Of a stretch of DNA of 64,000 bases, positions 2,889 to 63,557 are shown piece by piece. The translations under genes and the position numbers were made by a program. This DNA comes from Candidatus Tayloriibacteriota bacterium (GTDB lineage Bacteria; Patescibacteriota; Minisyncoccia; Phycocordibacterales; PALSA-1337), in the NCBI GenBank assembly GCA_943354385.1, contig CALRBR010000003.1, positions 1,926-65,925 on the forward strand. Direction: 5' to 3'. The notes below the pieces were generated by a model. It had not been told where the DNA came from and searched no databases. It saw only the letters and a program-made list of their open reading frames with translations. Each line of letters starts with the position of its first letter. Within the stretch, counting starts at the first letter, position 1.

Positions 2889-5549
2889 ATGTCCAAAGCG
2901 CAATATCATGATCATGGCATAGATTCTATTGTTGTAAAGGGTGCGCGCACTCACAATCTAAAGAATATCAATGTTGAAATGCCACGCAACAAGATGGTGG
3001 TGTTTACTGGTCTCTCAGGCTCTGGCAAATCATCACTTGCATTCGATACTATTTTTGCTGAGGGCCAGCGCCGATATGTAGAGTCACTCTCTTCATACGC
3101 TCGACAGTTTCTCCGCCAGATGCAAAAGCCAGATGTAGATGAGATCACCGGTCTTTCACCAGCTATTTCTATCGACCAAAAGTCGCGCTCAAACAACCCT
3201 CGTTCAACTGTCGCAACTATTACTGAAATCTATGACTATCTACGTATTCTCTACGCTCGTATCGGTATGCCACACTGTCTTGTCTGCGGATCAGCAATTA
3301 AGAAACTTTCAAACGAAGAAATAAAAAACTTTGTGCTCGAAAAAGTGGATAGTTCTTCGTCCCACCACGCTGATTTTATTGAAATCTTTTCACCACTCGT
3401 CCGTGGCCGAAAAGGCGAGTACTATCAGCTTCTCTACGACCTGCTCGGCAAAGGTTACAGTGAAGTACTTATCGATGGGAATAGAAAGAAGCTCCGTGAA
3501 CAAATAGAGCTTACTAAAAACAAGCGACATGATATCGCAGTGCTTGTCGATCGTATTCGTATCGATGATTTTAAAAATGATGCCCAATCCTCGCTCGAGC
3601 GTCTCAGTGAATCTCTCGAAAAAGCTCTTGATGAGTCCGAAGGTCTCATTCGAATTATACTTTCCAATACTACAAAGCAGGTCAAAGAAAAAATTGAGGC
3701 AAGTGACAAACCGGAGCTTGCCGGAGCCCTTTCTCCTGTCATCCTCGAAACAAAAGATTTAACTATCAAGGAAGACTTCTTAATGTCCTCAAAATTCTCT
3801 TGTCCAAAAGATGGCTACTCATATCCAGAGATAGAACCTCGACTTTTCTCATTCAACTCTCCATACGGTGCATGTCCAGAATGTAATGGCCTTGGTACCC
3901 AACAGTTTTTTGGTGAGGAACCTTGTACAAAATGTAAAGGAGCACGACTTCGCGAGGAAGCTCTCCACGTCACTATCGGAGGCAAGAATATTGTCGATTT
4001 TACCGCACTCTCCATCTCTGATTCAGAAGTATTTTTGGAAGGTCTAAAACTCACCGTTACTGAAAAAAATATTGCTAAGGTTATTTTAAAAGAAATAGAA
4101 AGTCGCCTGACATTTATGATCAATGTAGGTATTGAATACCTCTCTCTTAATCGTCGTGCCCACACCCTTTCTGGAGGAGAAGCACAGCGTATCAGACTCG
4201 CTTCTCAGCTTGGTTCAGGACTTGTGGGTGCTCTCTATGTGCTCGATGAGCCGACCATCGGGCTTCACTCTCGAGATAATGACCGCTTGATCAAAACTCT
4301 CGTCGATCTTCGCGATGCTGGTAATAGTATTTTGATTGTGGAGCACGACGAGGACACTATTTATGCTTCAGATTATATTATAGACATCGGCCCTGGTGCA
4401 GGAATACACGGGGGTAAAATCGTAGTGGCTGACTACCTAGAGCCTCTTTTGACCGCAAAAACCAATCCGTCTGAATCCCTCACCCTCGACTATCTTCGTG
4501 GGGAGCGAAAAATAGAAGTCCCAAAGACGCGCAGGGACAAAGACAAAGGCAAGATCATGATTCGTGGAGCAAATATTTTTAATCTAAAAAATATCAATGT
4601 CGACATCCCACTCGGCAAGCTCGTCCTCGTGACCGGTGTGTCTGGCTCGGGCAAATCATCTCTCGTGTATGAAGTGATTTATAAAAATCTTCAAGCTCGA
4701 CTCGAACGACGGCATCGTACCAACGATGTCTACAACTGTGCCTCATTTTCAGGCAGCGAATATCTCGGCCGAGTCGTGCTCATCGATCAGTCTCCGATCG
4801 GTCGTACTCCTCGTTCAAACCCGATGACTTATACCGGTGCGTGGAGTTTTGTGCGAGAGCTTTTTGCGGAGTCTGCCGAAGCTCGTGTGCGTGGCTGGAA
4901 AGCCAATCGTTTTTCATTTAACGTTAAAGGAGGACGATGTGAAGCTTGTCAGGGTAACGGCGAAATTGCGGTGGAAATGCATTTCTTGCCGACTGTCTAT
5001 GTACCATGCGAGGTCTGTGAGGGTAAGCGCTTTATGAAGGAGACTCTAGAAATAAAATACAAGCACAAAAATATTTACGAAATTCTCTGCATGACAGCAG
5101 AGGAAGGTCTCGTTTTTTTTGAAGATATTCCAGCTATCTATGATCGTCTAAAAAGTCTGAGTGATGTCGGTTTGACATATCTCAAGCTAGGGCAATCTGC
5201 AACAACCCTTTCTGGTGGAGAAGCTCAGCGTGTAAAAATATCTTCGGAGCTCTATCGCCCACATATTCAAAAAACTATTTATATTTTGGATGAGCCAACT
5301 ATCGGACTTCACTATGAGGACGTGCGAAAATTGATTGAGATTGTTCAGAAACTCGTTGATAAGGGCAATACGGTGGTTGTGATTGAGCATAATATGGATA
5401 TTGTAAAATCAGCTGACTATGTGATCGACATTGGTCCAGAGGGAGGTGATAAGGGAGGTAAGATAGTGGCCAAGGGTACACCTGAGGATATTGCGATGAA
5501 TGAAAAGTCTTATACTGGAACGTATTTGAAGAAGGTACTTAAAAAGTAG
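2889..5549 (+). CDS. uvrA: Excinuclease ABC subunit A (UvrA)
   Basis: 886 aa. Two ABC ATPase modules ([14 protein letters not shown] and [11 protein letters not shown] Walker A). Zn-finger Cys clusters ([14 protein letters not shown] and [16 protein letters not shown]). Two LSGGEAQR signature motifs. Confidence 0.95.
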
Positions 5550-5810
5550 GGGCGGAGGAGATGTTAGATATTAGTAGTTAGACAGCAGATCAAAATAAAA
5601 AACCGACCTACTCTTTTTGTTTTCGAGTGCGTCGGCAAGAGAGATAGGTAGAAAGCATTTTCTGTTGGCGACCATTAGCAATAATTTTTTTCCTTAAGTG
5701 AGCCGATCGTGCCTCGTGCAGGCCTAGCATTAACCAAAGATGCCTAGCGTGAAGACGGAGCATTTCGAGCTCTGTTTTTTTGCGGATAGCTGACGTGACT
5801 TTTTTCGTTT

Positions 5811-6071
5811 TCATATAGGTCTGAATTTGAAACCGCATTCCGGACAGGTAATGGTGAATCGTAAATCATGGGGACCTTTTTTGTGCTTACATCTGCTTTT
5901 GAGAGCCTCCAGAGCTTTCTCCAATTTTCGCAGATGTTTCTCAAGGAGATCTGTGGTATCTGAACAATACTCTGCTATTTTCAGATGACCATCGATCTTA
6001 TCCATCAGCCTTTCTATCCTTATTTCCAGATGCTTTCTCCTTACTGTAATGGAAACAGATTTCTTTGCCAT
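5811..6071 (-). CDS. Hypothetical small protein with C-terminal zinc-ribbon-like motif (CPECGFKF)
   Basis: 86-aa ORF lying divergently between uvrA and uvrC. Coiled-coil-like composition. No recognisable family, so it may be spurious. Confidence 0.25.
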   Translation of the reverse strand: MAKKSVSITVRRKHLEIRIERLMDKIDGHLKIAEYCSDTTDLLEKHLRKLEKALEALKSRCKHKKGPHDLRFTITCPECGFKFRPI

Positions 6072-9497: not shown

Positions 9498-9570
9498 GGG
9501 CCCTTAGCTCATCTGGTAGAGCACCTCATTTGCAATGAGGGGGTGGCAGGTTCGAGTCCTGTAGGGTCCA
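9498..9570 (+). tRNA. tRNA-Ala (anticodon UGC)
   Basis: 73-nt cloverleaf. Acceptor GGGCCCT/AGGGTCC with the G3:U70 alanine identity pair. Anticodon loop TTTGCAA. T-loop GGTTCGAGTCC. Discriminator A. CCA not encoded. Confidence 0.9.
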
Positions 9571-9580
9571 CCGAACAGAA

Positions 9581-9905: not shown

Positions 9906-10895
9906 ATGGCGAAAAAGAAACTCTCACAAAAGAATCCGGTAGTCATCTACCAAGCAAAATCTGGGGCTATCGAGCTTCGGGGCGATTTTGGCAAGGAGAC
10001 GATTTGGGCGACCCTTGATCAGATTGCTGAAGTTTTTGGGCGTGATAAATCTGTCATTTCTCGTCACTTTAAAAATATCTATGCTGAGGGGGAGCTGGAT
10101 GAAAAGGCAACTGTTGCAAAAAATGCAACAGTTCAAAAAGAGGGTACTCGTACAGTTGAGCGTATTATTGAATACTATAATCTCGACGCGATTATTTCTG
10201 TCGGGTATCGAGTTAATTCGAGTACCGCTACGAAATTTCGTCAGTGGGCCACCAAGACCCTCCGGAGTTACATCATCGACGGCTTTGCCATCAATCGCTC
10301 ACGTATCGCCAAAAATCACGAGCACTTTCTAAGTGTCGTTGAGGATCTCAAGAAATTATTACCGACCACTTCGGCGATTGATCCAAAAGATGCTATCGAG
10401 CTCATCTCATTGTTTGCCGACACCTGGCTGTCTCTCGATGCCTACGATCGAGAGCTGTTGCCAAAAGGGAAGCTTACTAAAAAGAAAGTCTCCATCACCC
10501 CAGAACAGATTGCAAAAGACTTGGCGACACTCCGGAAGACTCTGATCGAAAAAGGTGAGGCGACCGATGTGTTTGGTAATGAACGAAGCGCAGGGTCTGT
10601 GTCCGGAATCGTGGGAAATGTTCTCCAGGCGTTTGGAGGTAGCGATGTCTACCCAACGATTGAAGAAAAAGCGGCACACCTCTTGTATTTTATGGTTAAA
10701 AATCATCCGTTTACCGACGGCAACAAACGCTCGGGTGCTTTTGCATTTGTCTGGCTCTTAAAACAGGCACGGATTCTCGATATCCGTCGCCTGACCCCTT
10801 CGGCACTTACCGCGCTCACCGTATTGGTGGCAGAAAGTGATCCAAGTCACAAAGATAAGACGGTAAAATTGATTCTTAACATGATTGCAAAGTGA
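9906..10895 (+). CDS. RhuM-family N-terminal domain fused to Fic/Doc (death-on-curing-like) domain protein
   Basis: 329 aa. N-terminal IELRGDFGKETIWATLDQIAEVFGRDKSVISRHF..NSSTATKFRQWATKTL matches the virulence RhuM family. C-terminal HPFTDGNKRSGAFAF matches the Doc-type Fic motif HxFx(D/N)GNKR. Confidence 0.85.
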   Translation: MAKKKLSQKNPVVIYQAKSGAIELRGDFGKETIWATLDQIAEVFGRDKSVISRHFKNIYAEGELDEKATVAKNATVQKEGTRTVERIIEYYNLDAIISVGYRVNSSTATKFRQWATKTLRSYIIDGFAINRSRIAKNHEHFLSVVEDLKKLLPTTSAIDPKDAIELISLFADTWLSLDAYDRELLPKGKLTKKKVSITPEQIAKDLATLRKTLIEKGEATDVFGNERSAGSVSGIVGNVLQAFGGSDVYPTIEEKAAHLLYFMVKNHPFTDGNKRSGAFAFVWLLKQARILDIRRLTPSALTALTVLVAESDPSHKDKTVKLILNMIAK

Positions 10896-10937
10896 TAATG
10901 CTTTGAGGGGCTACCATACAGGACCCAAACCCCCTTC

Positions 10938-10976
10938 AACGGCTCAGTCCTTTTGGCTACAAAGGACTGAGCCGTT
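10938..10976. repeat. AACGGCT-stem palindromic hairpin (AACGGCTCAGTCCTTT-tggctac-AAAGGACTGAGCCGTT)
   Basis: 16-bp perfect stem 3' of the RhuM/Doc gene. Shares the AACGGCTCAGT...ACTGAGCCGTT base with the hairpin at 14472. Confidence 0.6.
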
Positions 10977-11125
10977 AAACCCATACAGCCCTTGTTTTGC
11001 AACGTTTTTCGCCCAGAGGTTATCCAATCGACAAAGAAAATGGTAGACTAAATCTGACTCTTTCGACTTTGGAAAAGATAGCTAGATTGCTCATAATTTA
11101 GAACAGTGAGTCGATGTGAAAAAAT

Positions 11126-11473
11126 ATGAAAGATATAAAAGATTTAACAAAAAGAATAATTGCTTTCCGCGATGCACGGGACTGGAAACAATTTCATAAT
11201 CCAAAAGATGTTGCTTTGTCTTTAGTACTAGAGGCTACTGAGGTGATGGAACATTTTCAATGGAAGAGTAAAGAAGAGATGGAAAAGTATATCGTGACCA
11301 ATAAAGTTGACATAGGTGAAGAACTTGCAGATGTTTTGTATTGGGTACTTTTGATGAGTACAGATCTTAAAATTGATGTTCTCGATGCGCTCGAGAAGAA
11401 GATTTCAAAAAACGAAGAAAAATATCCGGTCGAAAAAGCGAAGGGTAGGCATACAAAATATAATAAACTATAA
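11126..11473 (+). CDS. MazG-like nucleoside triphosphate pyrophosphohydrolase (small all-alpha MazG/NTP-PPase domain)
   Basis: 115 aa. EATEVMEHFQW..EELADVLYWVLLMS matches the EExxE/D metal-binding helices of the MazG family. The stop (11471-11473) abuts the ATG of the next gene (11475). Confidence 0.8.
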   Translation: MKDIKDLTKRIIAFRDARDWKQFHNPKDVALSLVLEATEVMEHFQWKSKEEMEKYIVTNKVDIGEELADVLYWVLLMSTDLKIDVLDALEKKISKNEEKYPVEKAKGRHTKYNKL

Positions 11474-11474
11474 A

Positions 11475-13499
11475 ATGTCAGACATAGCCACCTTTTCATT
11501 TAATGCAACTGGGGTAGAAAAAATACGTAATTATAAATATGGCAGTGATTGGCCGGTTGTTTACTTGATAGAAAATGGGAAAGAACTATATGTTGGAGAA
11601 ACAATCAGAGCGTATGGTAGAACAAAACAGCATTTAGAAAACGAAGCCAGAAAACATTTAAAGATGATTCATGTTATTTCTGACGACGAATTTAATAAAT
11701 CCGCAACTCTGGATACAGAATCTTCACTAATTGAGTATTTGGTCGCAGACGGTAAATATATTCTTCAGAATGGAAATGGAGGTTTACAAAACCATGATTA
11801 TTTTGACCGTGAAAGATACAGGGGTAAATTTGAGTTATTGTGGAAGAAATTGCAGGATTTAAATATTGCCAGTAAAGATTTACTACAGATTCGTAATAGT
11901 GATATTTTTAAATACTCACCGTACAAAACCCTCACGGATGATCAGTATTTAATTGCCTCAAAACTTCTAGAACAGTTTAAGGAGAATAAAATACAGACCT
12001 ATATTATTCATGGAGGTCCTGGTACTGGAAAAACAATTCTTGCCACATTTCTTATTAAGCAATTGATTGAAGCAGGTAAAAAGGATGTTGCTCTTGTTAT
12101 AGCAATGGTCTCTTTGCGAAAGACTTTAAAAAAAGTATTCAGAGATATTCCAGGTTTAAGTCCAAATATGGTGATTGGACCTAATGAGGTTGTAAACCAG
12201 AAATATGACATATTGATTGTTGATGAAACACATCGTTTACACCAGAGAAGAAATATTCCAAATTATGGAACTTTTGACAAAACCAATAGGGCTTTAGGTT
12301 TAGGAAATGAAGGCACAGAACTTGATTGGGTACTTAAATCCGCGAATCAAGTAGTACTTTTTTATGATGAAAAACAATCCGTTAGACCTTCAGATATATC
12401 AATTAACAAAGTTTTAGAATCAAAACCAATCAGTTTTGAACTTAAAACACAGATGCGAGTGAAAGGAGGGGAAAAGTATCTTGAATTTATAGATAAACTT
12501 CTTGAGAATGATGGAAATATTAAGGCTAATTTTTCAGATTATGATTTTAAGATTTGCGATGATCTTGCGGAGATGGTTTCGGATATAAAGAAACAAGATA
12601 AAATTCATTCTTTGTCTCGTTTGGTTGCTGGATATGCTTGGAAATGGATATCCAGAACAAATAATGGAATGCCAGATATTGTAATAGGGGATGTTAAGTT
12701 ATTTTGGAATAGCAAGATTCATGATTGGGTAAATTCCTCAAATGCTATAAATGAAGTGGGCTGTATACATACCATTCAAGGATACGATTTAAACTACGCG
12801 GGAGTAATTATAGGACCTGAAATGCTGTATGATCCAATCACAAAAAAGATTATTGTTGATAAGTCAAAATATCTAGATTCGAATGGTCACAATGGGGTGA
12901 ACGATCCAGAGGAACTTAAGAGGTATATAGTTAATATTTATAAAACACTACTTACACGGGGGATACTTGGAACATATATTTATATTGTTGATGAAAACCT
13001 GAGAAACTATTTCAAGGAAAAATTTGGACAAGAAACTAGTAAAAAAATGGATTTTAAAGAAAATTATAATGAAAGGAAAATAGTTTCTCCTTTCACAATG
13101 GAAATGATCAGAGTTCCTTTGGTTGGCTCTGCGCCGTGTGGAAATCCGCTTCTTGGCGAAGAAAACATTGAGGAATATATTGAAGTAGAAAAAAGCAAAA
13201 TTAAACCTGGCTATAACTATTTTATTCTTCGAGCTACTGGAGACTCGATGAACCTTGTTGGAATAAATGACGGGGATCTGGTGCTCTGTCGCCAGCAATT
13301 AAAGGCTGATACCGGCAACAGGGTTGTTGCTTTATTGGGTGATAATGTAACGATAAAAGAGTACGGTCCCCGCGAGGATGGAGTGCGTCTTCTTTTGCCC
13401 AAGAGCTCAAATAAGGATCATATGCCCATAACCCCAGGCGAAGGAGATAGTGTGCAAGGTATTGTACAGGAGGTGCTTAAAGGAGTAGACGAAGAATAA
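11475..13499 (+). CDS. GIY-YIG nuclease + DUF2075-type P-loop ATPase (SF1-helicase-related, Nhi-like) + C-terminal LexA/UmuD-like S24 peptidase domain fusion protein
   Basis: 674 aa from the ATG at 11475; the ORF-track N-terminal extension overlaps mazG. GIY-YIG (VVYLIENGKELYVGET..R..E..N). Walker A HGGPGTGKT, Walker B ILIVDETHRL. S24 hallmarks: candidate cleavage site SAPCG/NPLL, nucleophile Ser in GDSM, catalytic Lys in VTIKEY, plus a GINDGDLVL..VVA strand pattern as in LexA. Confidence 0.8.
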   Translation: MSDIATFSFNATGVEKIRNYKYGSDWPVVYLIENGKELYVGETIRAYGRTKQHLENEARKHLKMIHVISDDEFNKSATLDTESSLIEYLVADGKYILQNGNGGLQNHDYFDRERYRGKFELLWKKLQDLNIASKDLLQIRNSDIFKYSPYKTLTDDQYLIASKLLEQFKENKIQTYIIHGGPGTGKTILATFLIKQLIEAGKKDVALVIAMVSLRKTLKKVFRDIPGLSPNMVIGPNEVVNQKYDILIVDETHRLHQRRNIPNYGTFDKTNRALGLGNEGTELDWVLKSANQVVLFYDEKQSVRPSDISINKVLESKPISFELKTQMRVKGGEKYLEFIDKLLENDGNIKANFSDYDFKICDDLAEMVSDIKKQDKIHSLSRLVAGYAWKWISRTNNGMPDIVIGDVKLFWNSKIHDWVNSSNAINEVGCIHTIQGYDLNYAGVIIGPEMLYDPITKKIIVDKSKYLDSNGHNGVNDPEELKRYIVNIYKTLLTRGILGTYIYIVDENLRNYFKEKFGQETSKKMDFKENYNERKIVSPFTMEMIRVPLVGSAPCGNPLLGEENIEEYIEVEKSKIKPGYNYFILRATGDSMNLVGINDGDLVLCRQQLKADTGNRVVALLGDNVTIKEYGPREDGVRLLLPKSSNKDHMPITPGEGDSVQGIVQEVLKGVDEE

Positions 13500-13502
13500 T
13501 TT

Positions 13503-14015
13503 ATGAGTGATAATCAATTTTCAAAATTAAACGACGAGGAACTGTGGCTTCAATATGCCGATACCGAACTAGAATTAAAAAATAGAGGTTTGGTGCGTAC
13601 TAGAAATATCGTTGGTGAGCGTGGAGAATTTCTTGCGATTGCAACCTACAATTCAATTGCGGGTATGCCAAATCTTCAAGCTGCACCAGAGGGAACACAA
13701 AATGTTGATGCCATAAGTCGAAAAGGAGAAAGATATAGTATAAAAACAATTTCTGAACCGGGTTCAACAACAGGAGTTTTTTATAATTGCGGTGAAAAAG
13801 ATGATAAAAATATACCTGAAAGAAAGTTTGAGTATGTAATTATTGTTCAACTTTTTAAAAATTATAGACCAAAAAGGATTATTGAATTAAATTGGGAAAT
13901 ATTCTTAAGGTATAAAAAATGGCACTCAACGATGCGTGCATGGAATTTGAGCGTGACTAGAGCCTTATTAGCAGATAGTAAACTTATTTATGAAAATATA
14001 GAGAGCATACCTTAA
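13503..14015 (+). CDS. Hypothetical protein, third gene of the MazG/DUF2075 operon
   Basis: 170 aa. Starts 3 nt after the preceding stop. No confident family. Possible D...E.K-like nuclease signature (NVDAISRKGERYSIK), weak. Confidence 0.6.
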   Translation: MSDNQFSKLNDEELWLQYADTELELKNRGLVRTRNIVGERGEFLAIATYNSIAGMPNLQAAPEGTQNVDAISRKGERYSIKTISEPGSTTGVFYNCGEKDDKNIPERKFEYVIIVQLFKNYRPKRIIELNWEIFLRYKKWHSTMRAWNLSVTRALLADSKLIYENIESIP

Positions 14016-14101: not shown

Positions 14102-14440
14102 GTGTTGTGTGATTCCAAAAATGCTATACTTACTCCCATGAACACCACCGCGATTATTCTTTTTGCTGTCGTTATTCTCGGACTTTTGGGTTGGGGCTAT
14201 CGCAATCGGGGGAATATACATTGGTCTCCTGACGAGCGGGGTAAAAATAAAGCGGAACACAAGAAAACAATCATGACCTTGTTCTCGACTGATGGAGCCC
14301 GAATCACCAATGACGATGTACAGAAGCTGGTAAATGTATCAGACGCCACTGCCACCCGCTATCTAGACGAGCTCGAACAAGAAAAACAGATCACGCAGGT
14401 AGGTAGGGAAGGCAAATACGTGTATTACGAAAAAAGGTAA
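14102..14440 (+). CDS. Hypothetical small membrane-anchored protein with C-terminal winged-helix-like segment
   Basis: One TM helix (TTAIILFAVVILGLLGWGY). C-terminal VSDATATRYLDELEQEKQITQVGREGKYVYY resembles a wHTH. The true start may be M at 14138. Confidence 0.5.
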   Translation: MLCDSKNAILTPMNTTAIILFAVVILGLLGWGYRNRGNIHWSPDERGKNKAEHKKTIMTLFSTDGARITNDDVQKLVNVSDATATRYLDELEQEKQITQVGREGKYVYYEKR

Positions 14441-14471
14441 AAATACCCCCCAACCAAGGCCTTGTTTACTT

Positions 14472-14512
14472 CAACGGCTCAGTGGTCTGAATACAGTACC
14501 ACTGAGCCGTTG
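14472..14512. repeat. AACGGCT-stem palindromic hairpin (CAACGGCTCAGTGGT-ctgaatacagt-ACCACTGAGCCGTTG)
   Basis: 15-bp stem. The conserved base AACGGCTCAGT is shared with 10938. The distal stem differs with compensatory changes. Confidence 0.6.
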
Positions 14513-14559
14513 AGGCAGTAAGTAGTGCTCTCTATTTATTTTCTGATATAATATACTGC

Positions 14560-28744: not shown

Positions 28745-30118
28745 TCAGGTTCCCGTCGGACCGGGCAAAACCCTGAACTTGATCTCGGGATTCATCCCGG
28801 AGATCTTGATCAGGTTTGAGCCCGTCCGCTCGGCGAGGAACTTTGCGAATAGCTTCCCCAGGTTGCTCTGCTGGAGAGTCTCCCTGTCCTTGACGTAATC
28901 GTCATTGTCGGCCAAATCCTTTGCATGATGCGCGAGGAAGAGGTCGAGTGCCGACTGCGCCACTGCTATGTCTTCCTGGGTTTTGACGTCCACTGCGAGG
29001 GAGTATTCCCGAGTGATCACCTGACCACCCTTTGATTCCCGCGAGTCAAACTTTCGGAAGGTCCAACCAATCCCCCAACCACGGTCTTTGAGTCCCTTAT
29101 CCAGGGTGACCGTATTGATGTGCTTCACGAGCACGCGACCAGCCTTGAATGCCGGAGCCTTCGGTGCGGGAACGACTTGCGTTACTTTCGTGGGAGGCTG
29201 AACCTCGGCCGGCGGAGTCGCAGGCGCCTTCTGGGCCTTCACTTTCGCCGGTTGCTTGGGAGCAACAGGTGGAGCGGGGGCTAGCGCAGGTGCGAGCGTA
29301 GCGGGCTTCGGGGTCACGATCACTTTGGTCGGGACTGCCGACGTCAGTGTCCCAGTTGTCACGTTGGTGATGGTAAATGTCACGGGTGTGGGTTGCACAA
29401 CCGTCACATTCGTCACCACATTCTGAATGGTCACCGGCGGGGTTGCCGCAGGTGCCACATTCACAATGTTCGTGACAGCCGACGCCTGCACCGTAAAGGT
29501 CGCCGTTGAGGGCGCGACATTGACGATGTTGGTGATAGTGGGAACCTGCACTGTCGTGTAGTTCGTCACATTCACCACCGGCGGTTTCTGCGTGGAGATC
29601 TTCTCCAGCAGTTTCAGTTGGCCTTCGCCAACTTTCGCAAACCGTTCGAACACAGCGAGCTTGCTGTCGAGTTTTTCAGCCTTCAAGGCTTGCTCGCGTT
29701 GCTTCTCGATGTGTGCGCGGTCAGCCTTGGTCGTCGCCGCTTGGGCGTCGCTCAGGGCCATCTGGCGTTTGTGCACATCGCGGAGCTCTTGCTCGATCTG
29801 CTTCTGCACTGTCGTCTCGTGAAGAGTCGGCGGGACAGGAACGGGATTGGCAACAAGCACCGGAGCCGTGTCTTGCTTCTTGAGCGAAGCCAAGGAGTCA
29901 TGGCCGTTGGTCACGATGTAGGTGAACACGCAAGCCACCACAGCGAGAAACAGGACGGTCATGATAACCGCAAACATGTTCTTCTCTTTCTGCTTGGGGT
30001 TCGGGCTGACCGTGGGATCCCCGATGCCGAGCCAATGATTGTAGGCCCAGGCGCCGAGGACGGTGCAGAACACGACGAAGGCGGCCATCTGGAGGAGGAG
30101 TGACAGGGTGGAGTTCAT
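28745..30118 (-). CDS. Hypothetical membrane-anchored protein with coiled coil, VTNIVNVAP repeats and Pro/Ala-rich linker, encoded in a GC-rich (60-67%) island
   Basis: 457-aa ORF. Local GC is 60-67% against ~38% for the window. No recognisable family. Likely start at MFAVIMTV (~29977), giving a single TM helix. Confidence 0.6.
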   Translation of the reverse strand: MNSTLSLLLQMAAFVVFCTVLGAWAYNHWLGIGDPTVSPNPKQKEKNMFAVIMTVLFLAVVACVFTYIVTNGHDSLASLKKQDTAPVLVANPVPVPPTLHETTVQKQIEQELRDVHKRQMALSDAQAATTKADRAHIEKQREQALKAEKLDSKLAVFERFAKVGEGQLKLLEKISTQKPPVVNVTNYTTVQVPTITNIVNVAPSTATFTVQASAVTNIVNVAPAATPPVTIQNVVTNVTVVQPTPVTFTITNVTTGTLTSAVPTKVIVTPKPATLAPALAPAPPVAPKQPAKVKAQKAPATPPAEVQPPTKVTQVVPAPKAPAFKAGRVLVKHINTVTLDKGLKDRGWGIGWTFRKFDSRESKGGQVITREYSLAVDVKTQEDIAVAQSALDLFLAHHAKDLADNDDYVKDRETLQQSNLGKLFAKFLAERTGSNLIKISGMNPEIKFRVLPGPTGT

Positions 30119-58995: not shown

Positions 58996-61038
58996 TCATT
59001 CTTTCACTATTTTTATAGAAAATTGTATATTTTCGGCTTGATAATTCAAACGTTCACATATTTTTGCTAAAAATGCGATTATTCCATTAGCACTCATATT
59101 ACCCTCTACGACTTCATTCGTGCGAAATTCTAGTGAGTGTCTAAGCGGTTTGTCTTTATTAAAATACCATTTGAATTCTGAACTATTCTGAATTTCAGTA
59201 AATTGTGTCGGAGAATATTCGTATAAGAAATTGCAAGTTTTAGTTAGTAAATCTCTCCAATTTTTTAATTCAATTCCTTTTTCATCTTCTTCAAAATATA
59301 AATGAGAGGGCTTGCTTCGACTAAAACTATCTTCACTGGTTAAATCAAATAACTGTTCTTCTGGAATTGGTTTTGAATATGTTGTTTTTGGGTATGGCCA
59401 AATGTCTTTAGCATTTTTGACTAGATCTTTTGCTCTTTCCACTATTTTTTCTTCATTCCAAATTGTTAAACCCTCAAGTTTATAATTTAATTTTAGTCTA
59501 CTAACTTGAAAATCAATCTGTTGCTTATCTTCAAAAGAACTGTTTGATAATTCAGTATTTTTTGCAGTTAAACTTAAATTTCCAAGAGTGTGTAGATATT
59601 TATTATGTATTTCTTGCCAATTTTCTCCTAGTTTATTTTTCCAATCCTTTGTTAAAGTTTGAGGCATTATATGTTCAACAGTTAATTCATCTAAACTGAC
59701 GGGATAAGCGGAGTGGAAATTTTCTAAAGATTCTAACAAGAAATTTCTATTTTTTGATTGAAGTCTATATATCTCTTTATTTATAAGTGCACTTTCAAAT
59801 TCTTCATTGTTTGGAAATCTCTGAGAGACTCTTTTTTCAAGTAGAATATAACTCAAAATATTAATATATTGCTCTTTCCACGACTCTTCTTTTTTAATAT
59901 CTCTAGCTAGGGAAATAAATAACTTATTCAATCCTTGCGTAGTATTGTCTACTAAAATCTTTCTAAAAGCATAACTTTCTATGATAAGAAGGATATCTTT
60001 TGTAGTTTCTTCCGTTATATTTTTAGAATCTAGCTCATTAAAAACATCCAACAAGTACGGATAACAAACTGTGAACTCTATTTTATTTATTTTTAACAGT
60101 TCTTTATTGATGGCACTATTGGGATGATTTTGAATTTGTGTTAACCAGCTATAAATTCCAGCAAAATATAATAAGTCTTTCAAGACACCTTCCTTGTTTT
60201 TATAGAAGTTATCTGTTGATAATTTTTTAAAAACAGAGTAAACATCATCTTTTTTAACCCAAATCCTTAGTTTAAAAATTAAATAATTTCTTACAAATTC
60301 CGCTATATCACCAGTTGATTTTTCAATTTCAACCCAGTATTTCTTATACATTTGCTCTTGTTGGAGCGGTTCTAAATCCATTAGGATATAATTGCGTATC
60401 AAATCACCAGCGGTAAGATCTACTCCAGTAGAATTTAAGCTTTCAAAAATCAATTGGGGATCGTCTTGCCCCCTCACCAAATCTATTAAAACTATTTTTA
60501 ATCTTCTAAATGCCTCGAATAGTTGTTGAGGAGTTAATGCTTCAGATGAAATTTTATCAAAAAAGAAATTATAGTTAGTAACTATATTAGAATTAGCATT
60601 TAAGTTATTGGAATTTTCAAACAGATTTTCAAAATTCTCCTTATCTTGTTTGTTTGGCTTTAATCTAATTCTTTTATCTTTTTCGGGAGAATATTTATTA
60701 ACAAGAAAATCTAATAACTGCTCTATTAAAATATTTTCTTCATTATTTTTTGTTTCTTTTGTCTTTAAAAACTTGTGTAAGGCGATCAACATGATCGAAA
60801 CCGTTGTTAGTCTTTGTTGCCCATCAATTATGGTATATTCCTCAAATCCGCTACCAATTGTAACAAGAGTACCCAAAAAATGATCACTCCTAGTATTGTT
60901 ATTCAGGTCTACTAAATCATCCCATAGCTTCTGACAATTTATTCTTGTCCAAGCATAATCTCTTTGGTATACAGGTATAGCAAAACTTTTCCCTGTGCCT
61001 TCTAAGAATTGATAAATTGGTAATTGTTGAACTTGCAT
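58996..61038 (-). CDS. GmrSD-like type IV (modification-dependent) restriction enzyme, DUF262 + DUF1524 architecture
   Basis: 680 aa. N-terminal DUF262/ParB-like NTPase with IPVYQRDYAW and DGQQRLTT motifs. C-terminal DUF1524 His-Me finger (ELTVEHIMPQT..W..LGNLSL). Confidence 0.8.
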   Translation of the reverse strand: MQVQQLPIYQFLEGTGKSFAIPVYQRDYAWTRINCQKLWDDLVDLNNNTRSDHFLGTLVTIGSGFEEYTIIDGQQRLTTVSIMLIALHKFLKTKETKNNEENILIEQLLDFLVNKYSPEKDKRIRLKPNKQDKENFENLFENSNNLNANSNIVTNYNFFFDKISSEALTPQQLFEAFRRLKIVLIDLVRGQDDPQLIFESLNSTGVDLTAGDLIRNYILMDLEPLQQEQMYKKYWVEIEKSTGDIAEFVRNYLIFKLRIWVKKDDVYSVFKKLSTDNFYKNKEGVLKDLLYFAGIYSWLTQIQNHPNSAINKELLKINKIEFTVCYPYLLDVFNELDSKNITEETTKDILLIIESYAFRKILVDNTTQGLNKLFISLARDIKKEESWKEQYINILSYILLEKRVSQRFPNNEEFESALINKEIYRLQSKNRNFLLESLENFHSAYPVSLDELTVEHIMPQTLTKDWKNKLGENWQEIHNKYLHTLGNLSLTAKNTELSNSSFEDKQQIDFQVSRLKLNYKLEGLTIWNEEKIVERAKDLVKNAKDIWPYPKTTYSKPIPEEQLFDLTSEDSFSRSKPSHLYFEEDEKGIELKNWRDLLTKTCNFLYEYSPTQFTEIQNSSEFKWYFNKDKPLRHSLEFRTNEVVEGNMSANGIIAFLAKICERLNYQAENIQFSIKIVKE

Positions 61039-61087
61039 AATAACTACATATTAGCATTTTTAGCCCTTAATATCAACGATTCTTAAT

Positions 61088-61837
61088 TTATTTTTGAAAC
61101 ACAAAAAGATGTTCGTGCATTATCAGTAAGAAGTTTGATTCCTTTGATTTTGTGACCCAAAAACCTGTTGCTTTGCAATTAAACTGTCTTTTGATTATGT
61201 CCTCTTTTAAAACAAAACCTACATCTAAAAACTTCTGCATTACCTTAAATGCAAGAGGTTGATACATTTTATTTCTGCGAGTGTCTCCCATTAAAATTGC
61301 ACAGTATTTTCCTTTCTTTAAAACTCGAAACAACTCTTTGGCAACTTTTTCTATTTCATCAACAAAAACGTCTATGTCGTGTATTCCCGAAAGATCTTCC
61401 TTAATCTTACCCTCACTGTATTTTATTATGTCTGCATAGGGAGGATGAGTTAAAACAAAATCAATTTCATTGTCTTTAATAAAGCTCATATCTCTCGCAT
61501 CACATTTCACGATCCGTTGTTTCGCTTTATTATCAACCTCAAATTCAAGAGATTTTTTAGTTCTCTCTAGTGCTTCTTCATTTACATCAATACAAGTAAT
61601 ATGGCGATTTAGTATCTTTGCTTCTATTGCCGTAGTACCTCCACCGATCATGCAATCGAGCAAGTGATCTTTTTCTTTTGAATAACGCAAAATAAGATTG
61701 CGGGCTACTTCGGGCGACCAGTTTCCGCGCCAGTCAGAAGTATGCGTTGCCCAATTACCACGACGAGGAAAAGCCCATACGGTTGTACACTCTAGTTCAA
61801 ATTCATCTGGGTTAAGTTTCATCTCTATTTCAGACAT
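61088..61837 (-). CDS. SAM-dependent DNA methyltransferase (amino-MTase; motif I before motif IV)
   Basis: 249 aa. AdoMet motif LLDCMIGGGTTAIEA. Catalytic (D/H)PPY-type motif DFVLTHPPYADII. Its start abuts the REase stop (61837/61838). Confidence 0.75.
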   Translation of the reverse strand: MSEIEMKLNPDEFELECTTVWAFPRRGNWATHTSDWRGNWSPEVARNLILRYSKEKDHLLDCMIGGGTTAIEAKILNRHITCIDVNEEALERTKKSLEFEVDNKAKQRIVKCDARDMSFIKDNEIDFVLTHPPYADIIKYSEGKIKEDLSGIHDIDVFVDEIEKVAKELFRVLKKGKYCAILMGDTRRNKMYQPLAFKVMQKFLDVGFVLKEDIIKRQFNCKATGFWVTKSKESNFLLIMHEHLFVFQK

Positions 61838-62437
61838 TTAGACGATTTTATATTTTTTAGATTTAACTAATTTAATAGAATCGTAACTATTTTTATCTGT
61901 AAACTTATATTGCCAAATTAAATACTCATCAATTCTTTTTTCAAAAAACAATAGGAAAACTTCTTTTTTTGTATGTTCTGTCCATTGTCTGTATGGATAA
62001 TATAATTGCCTAATTATTGTATTTTTTGTAGATGAATTTTTAGCTTCTATTAGAACAATTTTATTTTTTCCTTCATAACCAGCATCAACTTCTGTCTGAA
62101 CCCCCTTCGTTTCAATTGTGGTATTACCAATTTTATAACTAAACTCCGGTGTATATTTTCTCCCTCTGATTGCTAGCACAAGCGAAGGATCGTCCATGAA
62201 TGTTCTAATGAGACTTGAAGCATAGGCAAAATCAAGATGTTGCATCTCAGAATTTCCAATTTTTGCTGTGTCTAAATCAAAATCGAGCTTGGTATTATAA
62301 ATTTCAGCTTCACTTTTAATTTCAGGAATATCAACATATCCCTCGGCTTTTACAAGAACATATTGACCATTTTTTACTGGCAATAAGACTAGCCCATTTT
62401 CTTTCATTATTACTGGAACACTTTCTCTTGTATCCAT
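61838..62437 (-). CDS. Putative type II restriction endonuclease (PD-(D/E)xK)
   Basis: 199 aa. Candidate catalytic core ..TEVDAGYEGKNKIVLIEAKN.. (D...E-A-K). Sandwiched between two MTase genes. Confidence 0.5.
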   Translation of the reverse strand: MDTRESVPVIMKENGLVLLPVKNGQYVLVKAEGYVDIPEIKSEAEIYNTKLDFDLDTAKIGNSEMQHLDFAYASSLIRTFMDDPSLVLAIRGRKYTPEFSYKIGNTTIETKGVQTEVDAGYEGKNKIVLIEAKNSSTKNTIIRQLYYPYRQWTEHTKKEVFLLFFEKRIDEYLIWQYKFTDKNSYDSIKLVKSKKYKIV

Positions 62438-62600
62438 CTTGCATAAAATCCGAACTTCTTTTTCTGTTGTACTTTTAAAATCTTGAACTGATTTTTTTAT
62501 ATCTTTTGCAGATAAATAAAATGGTGATTTAGAAAAATTATGTTCTAAAATTTTGTTATCCTTAAATATTTTTGTCCAAGAATTATTGTTAGCCTTAAAT

Positions 62601-63557
62601 TTAATAATTAGTTACCAATACCTCTGTAATTTTTCCTCTTTTAGAAGCGTCGGAGTTAATGGCACGACCCGCTTGTACTTTTGTAATACGGACACCTTTA
62701 ATCTTGGAATAAATTTTGTTAATAAATGCAGTGTCGGAATTTGAAAGCATAACAAAACAACCTCGTTTGTGTAGTTCTACAAATGTATCTCTTAGTTCGG
62801 TTTGCTCTTTATCTAAAAATGCCTCGCTGGTGTATGAAGTAAATGACGCGGTTTTACTTACTGGATAATATGGTGGATCAAAATAAACAAAATCTCCTTT
62901 CTTTGCTTTTTTAAGCACTTCTCTGTAATCCTGTTTTATTATCTCAACATTTTTCAATGCTTTTGATGCTTTTCTAAGATTATTTTCATCACAAATAAGA
63001 GGGTTTGTATATTTACCAAACGGAACATTAAACCCACCTTTGCTGTTCACGCGATACATACCATTGAAACAAGTTCTGTTCAGATAGATAAAACGAGAGG
63101 CAGTATTTAAATCAGAAAGCTTTTCTGGATTTTGTGCCCGTATTTTTAGAAAATATTCCTTGTCTAGTTTATGTTTTTTGAGTGATTTTATTAGACTTTC
63201 AACATCACTTTTAATTACATTGTAAGTGATAACAAGTTCATTGTTCAAATCAGAAAGATAAGCTGTTTCAGGAAGAAGATCAAAGAATACTGCACCTCCG
63301 CCGACAAATGGTTCAAAATATTTTCCGCTTTGTGGATCAAATTTTTCTGGTGGATAAAGATTCATTAAACGAAATTGTGCGAGGAGTTGTCTTTTTCCAC
63401 CAACCCACTTAACAAAAGGTTTTGGTTTTTCTGCAATAATGCGGGAAGCGTCTTCAATGAGTTTTGTTTTATCTGCAAGCGAAAAAACCCTGTAAGCATA
63501 AATCGAATTTATGTTGAAGGTTTCTTTAATTTCTAAAATTGCTTGGTCTTTTGTCAT
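62601..63557 (-). CDS. Dam-family (D12 class, alpha) N6-adenine DNA methyltransferase
   Basis: 318 aa. KWVGGKRQLL (Dam motif). Motif I YFEPFVGGGAVFF. Motif IV VYFDPPYYP. Confidence 0.85.
   Translation of the reverse strand: MTKDQAILEIKETFNINSIYAYRVFSLADKTKLIEDASRIIAEKPKPFVKWVGGKRQLLAQFRLMNLYPPEKFDPQSGKYFEPFVGGGAVFFDLLPETAYLSDLNNELVITYNVIKSDVESLIKSLKKHKLDKEYFLKIRAQNPEKLSDLNTASRFIYLNRTCFNGMYRVNSKGGFNVPFGKYTNPLICDENNLRKASKALKNVEIIKQDYREVLKKAKKGDFVYFDPPYYPVSKTASFTSYTSEAFLDKEQTELRDTFVELHKRGCFVMLSNSDTAFINKIYSKIKGVRITKVQAGRAINSDASKRGKITEVLVTNY

Follow-up and report, generated by a model that had tools for sequence, protein, structure and literature searches.

A predicted LexA-type self-cleaving cassette on a MazG-coupled, Nhi-like nuclease-helicase in a Candidatus Tayloriibacteriota genome

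We have analyzed a stretch of 64,000 nucleotides from a Candidatus Tayloriibacteriota bacterium (the window; positions are counted from its first letter), and within it three closely packed genes that we call g1, g2 and g3. Gene g1 encodes a MazG-like protein, g3 a small protein related to restriction enzymes, and g2 a large protein that we predict to be a fusion of a GIY-YIG nuclease, a DUF2075/SLFN-type superfamily 1 (SF1) helicase and a LexA-type S24 autopeptidase. The coordinates of these and of other features are collected in Table 1. The genes are almost contiguous, with the junction between g1 and g2 reading TAA-A-ATG (a 1-nt spacer) and that between g2 and g3 reading TAA-TTT-ATG (a 3-nt spacer), which agrees with the three open reading frames and spacers reported in a first-pass annotation of this DNA. 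The g2 frame extends without a stop codon from a TTG at 11373, 102 nt 5' of the ATG at 11475 and overlapping the 3' end of g1, but the ATG is the preferred candidate start because homologues align from it. There is no Shine-Dalgarno motif 5' of this ATG, and this is consistent with termination-reinitiation coupling of g2 to the MazG gene. A consensus scan gives a sigma-70-like promoter candidate 5' of g1 (TTGGAA-17-CATAAT), although promoter-like sites are not enriched over shuffles and the candidate is therefore weak evidence.

Table 1. Positions of the features described in the text. Coordinates are those of the window except in the last row, which refers to a related locus.
Feature	Position	Strand	Basis or comment
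g1, MazG-like gene	11126-11473	+	115 aa
g2, nuclease-helicase-S24 gene	11475-13499	+	674 aa; start at ATG
GIY-YIG nuclease domain, g2 residues 1-110	11475-11804	+	PF01541, invariant residues
SF1 helicase/ATPase, g2 residues ~150-515	11922-13019	+	PF09848; Walker A, B
Disordered variable tether, g2 residues 518-543	13026-13103	+	pLDDT 30-37 (AF2)
LexA C-terminal-domain-type S24 cassette, g2 residues 544-674	13104-13496	+	PF00717, TIGR00498, PDB LexA
Cys555-Gly556 codons, predicted scissile bond (LexA Ala84-Gly85)	13137-13142	+	alignment; 48/48 invariant
Ser591 codon, predicted nucleophile (LexA Ser119)	13245-13247	+	alignment; 48/48 invariant
Lys628 codon, predicted general base (LexA Lys156)	13356-13358	+	alignment; 48/48 invariant
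g3	13503-14015	+	170 aa
Sigma-70-like promoter candidate, 5' of g1	11069-11097	+	consensus scan
tRNA-Ala	9498-9572		~1.5 kb before the g1-g2-g3 block
RhuM + Fic/Doc gene	9906-10895	+	PADLOC candidate defence gene PDC-S23; directly precedes the block
Hairpin 1	10935-10979	n/a	arm 13-15 nt, shared with hairpin 2
Hairpin 2	14469-14515	n/a	same 13-15-nt arm sequence
Gene for 112-aa protein, after g3	14102-14440		predicted transmembrane helix, winged helix-turn-helix
457-aa open reading frame	28745-30118	-	no Pfam match
GmrSD type IV restriction enzyme	58996-61038	-	second defence island
N6/N4 DNA methylase	61088-61837	-	second defence island
DUF6996/DUF6997 protein	61838-62437	-	second defence island
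D12-class Dam methylase	62601-63557	-	second defence island
Sau3AI/MutH-like-S24 gene	L090:6001-7893		methylase at 4632-5909 on the opposite strand

The C-terminal section of g2 corresponds clearly to the C-terminal domain of LexA. The Peptidase_S24 profile PF00717 matches residues 548-654 with an E value of 1.5e-19 and 70.2 bits against a cut-off of 23.3, and the lexA model TIGR00498 matches residues 546-669 (E 4e-22) through its C-terminal half only, at model positions 79-200. The cassette matches the sequence of LexA in the PDB with E 3e-13, and in Foldseek it aligns with the LexA C-terminal domain with a template modelling (TM) score of 0.73-0.81, normalized to target chains comprising the C-domain only, at 30-36% identity. 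This is where the first-pass annotation had expected profile searches to place it. The protein is not a LexA repressor proper, as the TIGR00498 score of 79 bits lies below the cut-off of 110.95, and the nuclease-helicase takes the place of the winged-helix N-terminus. By every criterion tested, g2 is predicted to be a member of the S24 peptidase family, and to be neither a LexA repressor nor a member of the Nhi family proper.

Alignment with residues 75-177 of Escherichia coli LexA places all the elements required for self-cleavage. Cys555-Gly556 lie at the position of the LexA scissile bond, Ser591 at that of the nucleophile and Lys628 at that of the general base, and each is invariant in the 48 homologues aligned; the hallmarks picked out in the first-pass annotation are thus all in place. 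Three types of cassette can be distinguished by the context of the predicted cleavage site. Type A (SAPCG) is that found in the window, type B (SVGCG) occurs at other Patescibacteria loci, and the divergent type C, with ..AAG.., G[KE]SM and T[VI]K, is found in Chitinophagaceae, Sphingobacterium and a Firestonebacteria metagenome-assembled genome. The Cys/Ala-Gly site, the serine and the lysine are retained in all 41 S24-bearing genome copies, including those of type C with Ala-Gly. Outside the family, the type A cassette is most closely related to LexA proteins of ~200 aa (45-50% identity), several of which have Cys-Gly and one of which is an annotated Omnitrophota LexA. The autoproteolytic competence predicted for the S24 module is strongly supported, because both catalytic and cleavage-site residues are conserved, and we consider it very likely that self-cleavage occurs at Cys555-Gly556.

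Cleavage of LexA is connected with its binding to RecA filaments, and in the structure determined by electron cryo-microscopy LexA F111, L113 and V153 form a pocket for RecA F203, with D150, D151 and E152 making an acidic contact patch (PMC9926225). The equivalents of the pocket residues are well retained in the 48 homologues, with F583 present in all of them, position 585 leucine in 42 and valine in 6, and position 625 valine in 40, alanine in 7 and isoleucine in 1. It is probable, with less assurance than for cleavage itself, that RecA* would trigger the S24 reaction.

The remainder of g2 is a nuclease-helicase. In the window copy the GIY-YIG profile PF01541 falls just under its cut-off (E 3.5e-4, 21.3 bits against 22.6), but it is matched by 49 of 56 family members, the best at 2e-7, and Y30, Y39, G41, R49, H53, E82 and N99, which represent the GIY and YIG strands and the catalytic Arg, His/Tyr, Glu and Asn, are invariant in all 56 sequences. 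The PADLOC model PDC-S14 matches residues 2-103. Residues 175-506 correspond to the SLFN-g3_helicase/DUF2075 domain PF09848 (E 3e-66), with Walker A GPGTGKT at 181 and Walker B VDETH at 249, and Foldseek relates the helicase to UPF1, RecD2, Dda, Dna2 and SLFN11. The GIY-YIG and DUF2075 P-loop ATPase assignments made in the first-pass annotation are therefore both upheld. The core, including the nuclease domain, is modelled by AlphaFold2 (AF2) with a predicted local distance difference test (pLDDT) score of ~90, and it is joined to the cassette by a tether whose length and sequence differ among homologues. No PADLOC model matches the MazG protein and those matching g2 (Nhi, AbiO, PDC-S41 and PDC-S14) do so only in part; neither NCBIfam nor PADLOC contains a model for the MazG + DUF2075 pair.

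The g1 protein is matched by the MazG-like profile PF12643 with E 1e-15 and 58 bits against a cut-off of 27. Its closest solved relatives in the PDB are dCTP pyrophosphatase 1 (DCTPP1, or RS21-C6; E 2e-16) and 4qgp (E 4e-19), and the metal-binding acids E36, E39, E42, E66 and D69 show 95% conservation or more among 78 copies, preserving the EExxE...ExxD metal ligands of DCTPP1. We predict that g1 is an all-alpha nucleoside triphosphate (NTP) pyrophosphohydrolase of the DCTPP1/RS21-C6 type, from which it differs in being bacterial, in its length of 115 aa, and in being always coupled to the gene of a nuclease-helicase. Enzymes of the DCTPP1 type are house-cleaning pyrophosphatases. Clustered at 90% identity, g1 falls into a group of 76 members and g2 into a group of 2, and MazG copies that are up to 89% identical accompany cores that are only ~54% identical. 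The MazG protein is therefore much better conserved, or exchanged more readily, than the nuclease-helicase that accompanies it. It could deplete deoxynucleoside triphosphates (dNTPs), remove modified dNTPs or have a regulatory role.

We have asked which genes form the unit by scanning one genome per species and keeping the 80 best loci (these and some further loci are given L numbers here). A MazG-like gene lies directly upstream of the helicase gene and on the same strand in 77 of the 80, the exceptions being two Clostridium loci with a divergent MazG gene and one contig end, and in 67 of the 77 the spacer between the two genes is -4 to +5 nt. When the first downstream open reading frame was clustered across the loci nearly all were unrelated singletons, so that there is no conserved downstream gene. 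By contrast with the MazG gene, g3 adjoins the pair in only two loci, one with the same arrangement as the window and 80% identity (L034) and one where it is upstream on the opposite strand (L070). Since MazG is linked in 77 of 80 loci and g3 in two, we conclude that the predicted unit is a translationally coupled two-gene module of MazG and nuclease-helicase. It is not the triad with the 170-aa protein that the first-pass annotation had put forward, and MazG, which had been regarded there as a loose accessory, is the only constant partner of the nuclease-helicase gene.

Occurrence of the module is patchy over Patescibacteria, Bacteroidota, plasmids of Bacillota and archaea, at varying genomic positions, and there are more than 100 full-length S24-bearing clusters with 57-85% identity. 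A pair lacking S24, annotated as 'nucleotide pyrophosphohydrolase' and 'DUF2075 domain-containing protein', is carried at 35-37% identity by Bacillus thuringiensis megaplasmids (pBMB431 and pIS56-233; loci L087 and L088), with a zeta toxin, an HNH endonuclease and a second (d)NTP pyrophosphohydrolase as neighbors. Over the family as a whole the neighbors include RhuM/Fic, BisI-like restriction endonuclease, SMODS, SocA/Panacea, zeta toxin, HNH, SIR2 and reverse transcriptase genes. Some copies are disrupted. In Bacteroidota we find broken MazG + DUF2075-S24 operons in Flavobacterium humidisoli (CP096829.1; L092:3390-5576) and at ~4935-4950 of L093 and L094, where the lesions are an in-frame stop in one case and, in the other, a 1-nt deletion present in 9 contigs. 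The ~190-aa 'stand-alone' S24 proteins of Bacteroidota were considered as an unfused version of the system and rejected as such, since both of the short entries examined (191 and 278 aa, named 'S24 family peptidase / LexA') are pieces of disrupted fusions, one resulting from the in-frame stop and the other from the 1-nt deletion, and other database entries of ~190-280 aa may be fragments too. A role for the module in defence is likely, and is favored because of the defence-gene neighbors, the patchy distribution, the shuffling of its modules and the occurrence of pseudogenes.

Gene g3 appears to be a restriction gene in its own right. The first-pass annotation saw in it an accessory protein with a weak D..E.K pattern, but it matches the PADLOC model for type II methyl-directed restriction endonucleases (mREase_II, PDLC03205) with E 4e-57, over profile positions 9-166 of 172. 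Its only relatives in the PDB, by sequence or by fold, are Eco15I and NhoI, and these matches are weak (for Eco15I, sequence E 0.011 and profile E 0.0012). The top eight Foldseek matches are all Eco15I or NhoI, and as they come from a low-confidence AF2 model (pLDDT 65) they are supportive only. With ~170 aa and a Glu ... xD ... xIK layout of its putative active site, g3 resembles the BisI family to which those enzymes belong. The residues E42, D69 and K81 do not vary, but at the third motif g3 has S79-I80-K81 where NhoI and Eco15I have QxK (Q-I/V-K), the identity to the solved members is 15-18%, and g3 stands outside the conserved MazG/helicase module. Its family comprises more than 700 stand-alone proteins of ~167 aa. 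We predict that g3 is a BisI-family-like, modification-dependent restriction endonuclease, an independent neighboring defence gene that is probably co-transcribed with the pair.

The S24 cassette is not a fixed component of the family. About half of the 80 loci lack it, their proteins ending ~10-20 residues past the helicase, and among intact operons without S24 there are two whose cores are 82-83% identical to that of the window protein (L084 and L086). Pairwise identities of the nuclease and helicase halves are correlated with a Spearman rho of 0.6-0.7, while the value is ~0.1 for S24 against the core and 0.1-0.2 for MazG against the core. The S24-bearing relatives closest to the window core have cassettes that are type-B-like, the identity being 70% in the core and 47% in S24, and the type A cassette of the window is 70-86% identical to cassettes on cores that are only ~55% identical. 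The cassette is optional and modular, and it is mobile in that its similarity does not track that of the core.

Similar cassettes are found on quite different proteins. A type B cassette ends a Sau3AI/MutH-like nuclease of 630 aa (P0160/P0391), where it is preceded by the linker SPYQEEMVELPLYDSVGCG ('SPY...PLYDSVGCG'), and visual comparison finds little difference between it and the cassette of the DUF2075 proteins P0011 and P0012. The gene of this nuclease is divergent from an adjoining C5 DNA methylase gene at three loci (L089-L091), with an AIPR gene adjacent, and the two are predicted to form a restriction-modification (R-M) pair. P0261 (511 aa) couples an HD phosphohydrolase to S24 with an Ala-Gly site, and P0153 (393 aa) has S24 following an N-terminus that contains no Pfam domain. 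Finally, P0413, P0435 and P0513 are short proteins having DUF3427 matches and a type-C S24-like tail, and may be fragments; DUF3427 is a sensor domain for modified DNA. We tentatively suggest that LexA C-terminal domains serve as mobile plug-in cassettes that would put diverse defence nucleases under direct post-translational control by RecA on single-stranded DNA (ssDNA), either as an effector armed by the SOS signal or as a restriction-alleviation switch, and that these would be commonest in Patescibacteria and Bacteroidota. The passengers would then be the GIY-YIG/DUF2075 nuclease-helicase, the Sau3AI-like restriction endonuclease, the HD phosphohydrolase and possibly DUF3427 enzymes.

The setting of the block is that of a defence island, as the first-pass annotation had proposed from its position after a tRNA-Ala gene. 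The RhuM + Fic/Doc gene matches PDC-S23 with E 1e-112, and such a gene recurs near the MazG/DUF2075 pair in about eight loci. The GC content is 0.33-0.37 across 11-14 kb and ~0.42 in the flanks, and the flanking genes are uvrB, uvrA, uvrC, ddl, cyclophilin, Mur ligase and ftsW, with the three uvr genes a few kb upstream. Together with homologues recorded under the name 'Patescibacteria group bacterium', these flanking genes point to the genome of an uncultured member of the Patescibacteria (CPR). We looked for att-type direct repeats of the tRNA-Ala gene flanking the island and found none, but instead a pair of hairpins that encloses exactly g1, g2, g3 and the gene of a 112-aa protein. The hairpins have the arm TCAACGGCTCAGT in common, of which there are four copies in the 64 kb compared with 0.02 expected by chance, and neither is followed by a T-run. 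The motif was not found in those related loci that were compared, the sole matches being two copies of the contig of the window. The hairpins may be boundaries of a cassette or a local palindromic element.

The 112-aa protein has one predicted transmembrane helix and a C-terminal winged helix-turn-helix. It was considered as a partner of the module and rejected, as only four other loci (L007, L026, L039 and L066) have a relative of it near the pair, at a distance of 1-3 kb downstream. Elsewhere in the window there is a second defence island on the minus strand (58996-63557), with a low GC content of 0.29-0.33 and containing the GmrSD enzyme and two DNA methylases. As a speculation, a theme directed against modified DNA could be common to the DCTPP1-like MazG, g3 and this GmrSD. 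The GC content of the window is highest, at 0.58 compared with ~0.41, in a kilobase occupied by the 457-aa open reading frame without a Pfam match, and there is a further GC peak of 0.53 at 39-40 kb.

It is instructive to compare g2 with systems that have been characterized. Nhi comprises a nuclease and DUF2075; it dimerizes and degrades phage replication intermediates, requires no sequence motif, and is opposed by the protective action of phage SSB (10.1101/776245). Nhi and Nhi-like proteins are validated defences (10.1101/776245; 10.1101/2022.05.11.491447). They share with g2 the order of an N-terminal nuclease followed by a DUF2075 (PF09848) SF1 helicase related to that of Schlafen, and the location in defence islands. 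The differences are nonetheless substantial, since the nuclease is PD-(D/E)XK in Nhi and GIY-YIG in g2, the PADLOC Nhi profile covers only g2 residues 145-368 (positions 176-367, or 192 of 470; E 3e-15), Nhi is a single gene where g2 has an obligatory MazG partner, and Nhi has no S24 cassette at its C-terminus. With LexA, UmuD and lambda cI (MEROPS S24), g2 has in common the fold of the C-terminal domain, the Ser-Lys dyad, the Ala/Cys-Gly bond in the preceding loop and the pocket for RecA F203. It differs in having no DNA-binding helix-turn-helix, in carrying an enzyme of 540 residues as passenger where these have a repressor domain or a 24-residue arm, and in having mostly lost the acidic RecA patch. 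To our knowledge every S24 autopeptidase described controls either a DNA-binding domain, as in LexA, cI and SetR, or, as in UmuD, a polymerase accessory factor. The CapH/CapP system, found in CBASS and others, also ties immunity to a DNA-damage or ssDNA signal through proteolysis, as predicted for g2. However, CapP is a separate metallopeptidase that cuts a transcriptional repressor, whereas in g2 a serine autopeptidase would be fused to the effector itself, so that control would be post-translational.

Passing mention has been made of GIY-YIG-DUF2075 fusions, and of DUF2075 proteins encoded beside modification-dependent enzymes (PMC6765204). In the full-text literature, a coverage that leaves out most subscription journals, we found no paper joining DUF2075 with S24/LexA or with MazG, and none of those on S24/LexA-like proteins with nuclease or defence, or on MazG-like proteins with defence, describes an S24-nuclease fusion or the pair; this is in keeping with the first-pass annotation, which knew of no description of the architecture. 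DUF2075, S24 and MazG domains are not mentioned in a domain-centric discovery paper (PMC13069673). What appears to be new is thus a defence of the Nhi-like nuclease-helicase kind with a new partner in MazG and a new regulatory cassette derived from LexA.

Taking all this together, the best explanation is that the locus encodes a two-gene, Nhi-like defence module whose effector has a cleavable, RecA*-responsive cassette derived from LexA, and we would give this reading as a whole a probability of about 0.42. The effector would have acquired the cassette through a flexible tether, and dimerization of the S24 domains would hold it as a tethered, restrained dimer. RecA-ssDNA filaments arising during phage replication, prophage induction or DNA damage would bind to the cassette and stimulate cleavage, freeing a nuclease-helicase of ~555 residues that is equivalent to the natural S24-less members. 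The freed enzyme would attack replication intermediates containing ssDNA, as does Nhi, while MazG hydrolyzes (modified) dNTPs alongside. A link to RecA and ssDNA would be biologically coherent for an enzyme that resembles Nhi, because Nhi acts on the replication intermediates of phages and is countered by a phage SSB.

Several observations weigh against this explanation. In this family little is left of the acidic patch by which LexA contacts RecA, the equivalent residues being G-(D/E)-N. Neither recA nor lexA was found in the 64 kb when motifs were searched for and the S24 domain was used as a tblastn query. Half of the family has no S24, so the cassette is not needed to keep the enzyme harmless, and this weakens the rationale for autoinhibition. 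For the Sau3AI/MutH-like nuclease that is paired with a C5 methylase and bears a related cassette, activation by cleavage would be hard to explain and inactivation would not. Restraint by S24 dimerization is a guess. The version in the first-pass annotation, in which occlusion by S24 keeps the enzyme inactive and cleavage activates it, is not supported, since the AF2 model, judged by pLDDT only, suggests a disordered 25-residue tether (518-543) and not a packed interface that would cover the active site.

The direction of the switch is the point at which the main alternative parts from our explanation. Cleavage might dismantle or degrade the effector, the cassette providing an activating dimerization and RecA* acting as an off-switch that spares the repair and recombination intermediates of the host, in effect a built-in restriction alleviation. 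Support for this comes from the near-identical cassette and linker on the Sau3AI/MutH-like restriction endonuclease, which must normally be on. It is established that cleavage of LexA and lambda cI inactivates by parting a functional domain from a dimerization domain; GIY-YIG nucleases have one active site and often act as dimers in cutting both strands, Nhi also dimerizes, and damage-induced alleviation of restriction is known for EcoKI. The predicted C-termini point in both directions, as type C cassettes would expose -VAA, -IAA or -AAA, which are like the degron of LexA, but types A and B would expose -APC or -GC, which are not. The S24-less relatives with nearly identical cores are intact and presumably active, so loss of the cassette alone should not inactivate the enzyme. 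The same comparison leads us to favor arming over disarming, because the product of cleavage would be much like a natural S24-less member that must be a working enzyme; that preference is itself tentative, and we consider the off-switch somewhat less likely but a strong competitor. It is also conceivable that the cassette is an address tag, docking the enzyme in the groove of RecA-ssDNA at phage intermediates, with cleavage secondary or lost. The residues of the F203 pocket are conserved, the LexA C-terminal domain alone binds deep in the RecA groove (PMC9926225), and the tether, if as long and flexible as modelled, would allow the enzyme to reach DNA. There is an analogy in SLFN11, the structural relative of the helicase, which is recruited to RPA-coated ssDNA. 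Yet absolute conservation of Cys-Gly, Ser and Lys argues that catalysis, and not binding alone, is under selection, and with the acidic contact patch degraded we regard simple targeting as distinctly improbable.

Two further alternatives concern the system as a whole. The pair might be a housekeeping function of a reduced genome, an SOS-regulated repair helicase-nuclease with a MazG that sanitizes the nucleotide pool, in which case immunity would not be involved. The homology of g1 to a house-cleaning pyrophosphatase, the proximity of the uvr genes and the classical place of S24 proteins in the SOS response would fit such a role. We give this little credence in view of the scattered occurrence at varying positions, the defence-gene neighbors, the pseudogenized copies and shuffled cassettes, the low GC relative to the flanks, and a helicase domain shared with Nhi, whose function in defence is proven. 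Alternatively g3 could be an accessory subunit of the MazG/DUF2075-S24 system, making a three-gene operon. Its 3-nt spacer on the same strand and the repetition of this layout in L034 would agree with this, and DUF2075 NTPases have been noted beside modification-dependent restriction enzymes (PMC6765204). Given the rarity of the association, with one of the two cases on opposite strands, the unrelated singletons found downstream in nearly all other loci, the membership of g3 in a large family of stand-alone proteins and its match to a self-sufficient restriction enzyme family, we can give this hardly any credence.

In g2 the S24 peptidase is predicted to have as its passenger a nuclease-helicase with catalytic activity, and on related proteins this place is taken by a restriction enzyme. 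Should cleavage take place and depend on RecA, it would constitute a direct link at the level of protein between the SOS signal and an immune effector. This bears on how nuclease-based defences avoid or exploit DNA damage in the host, and on how restriction alleviation could be hard-wired. The presence of the cassette on a restriction enzyme suggests a general principle, and if LexA C-terminal domains do act as plug-in cassettes they would represent a previously unrecognized layer of bacterial immunity. A portable 'cleave-on-RecA*' tag could also serve as an engineering part. The MazG + DUF2075 pair is in any case a widespread and unstudied two-gene module, present in Patescibacteria, Bacteroidota, Bacillus megaplasmids and archaea, and its nuclease-helicase would provide a bacterial parallel to Schlafen-11, which is related through this helicase domain and reacts to ssDNA at replication forks under stress.

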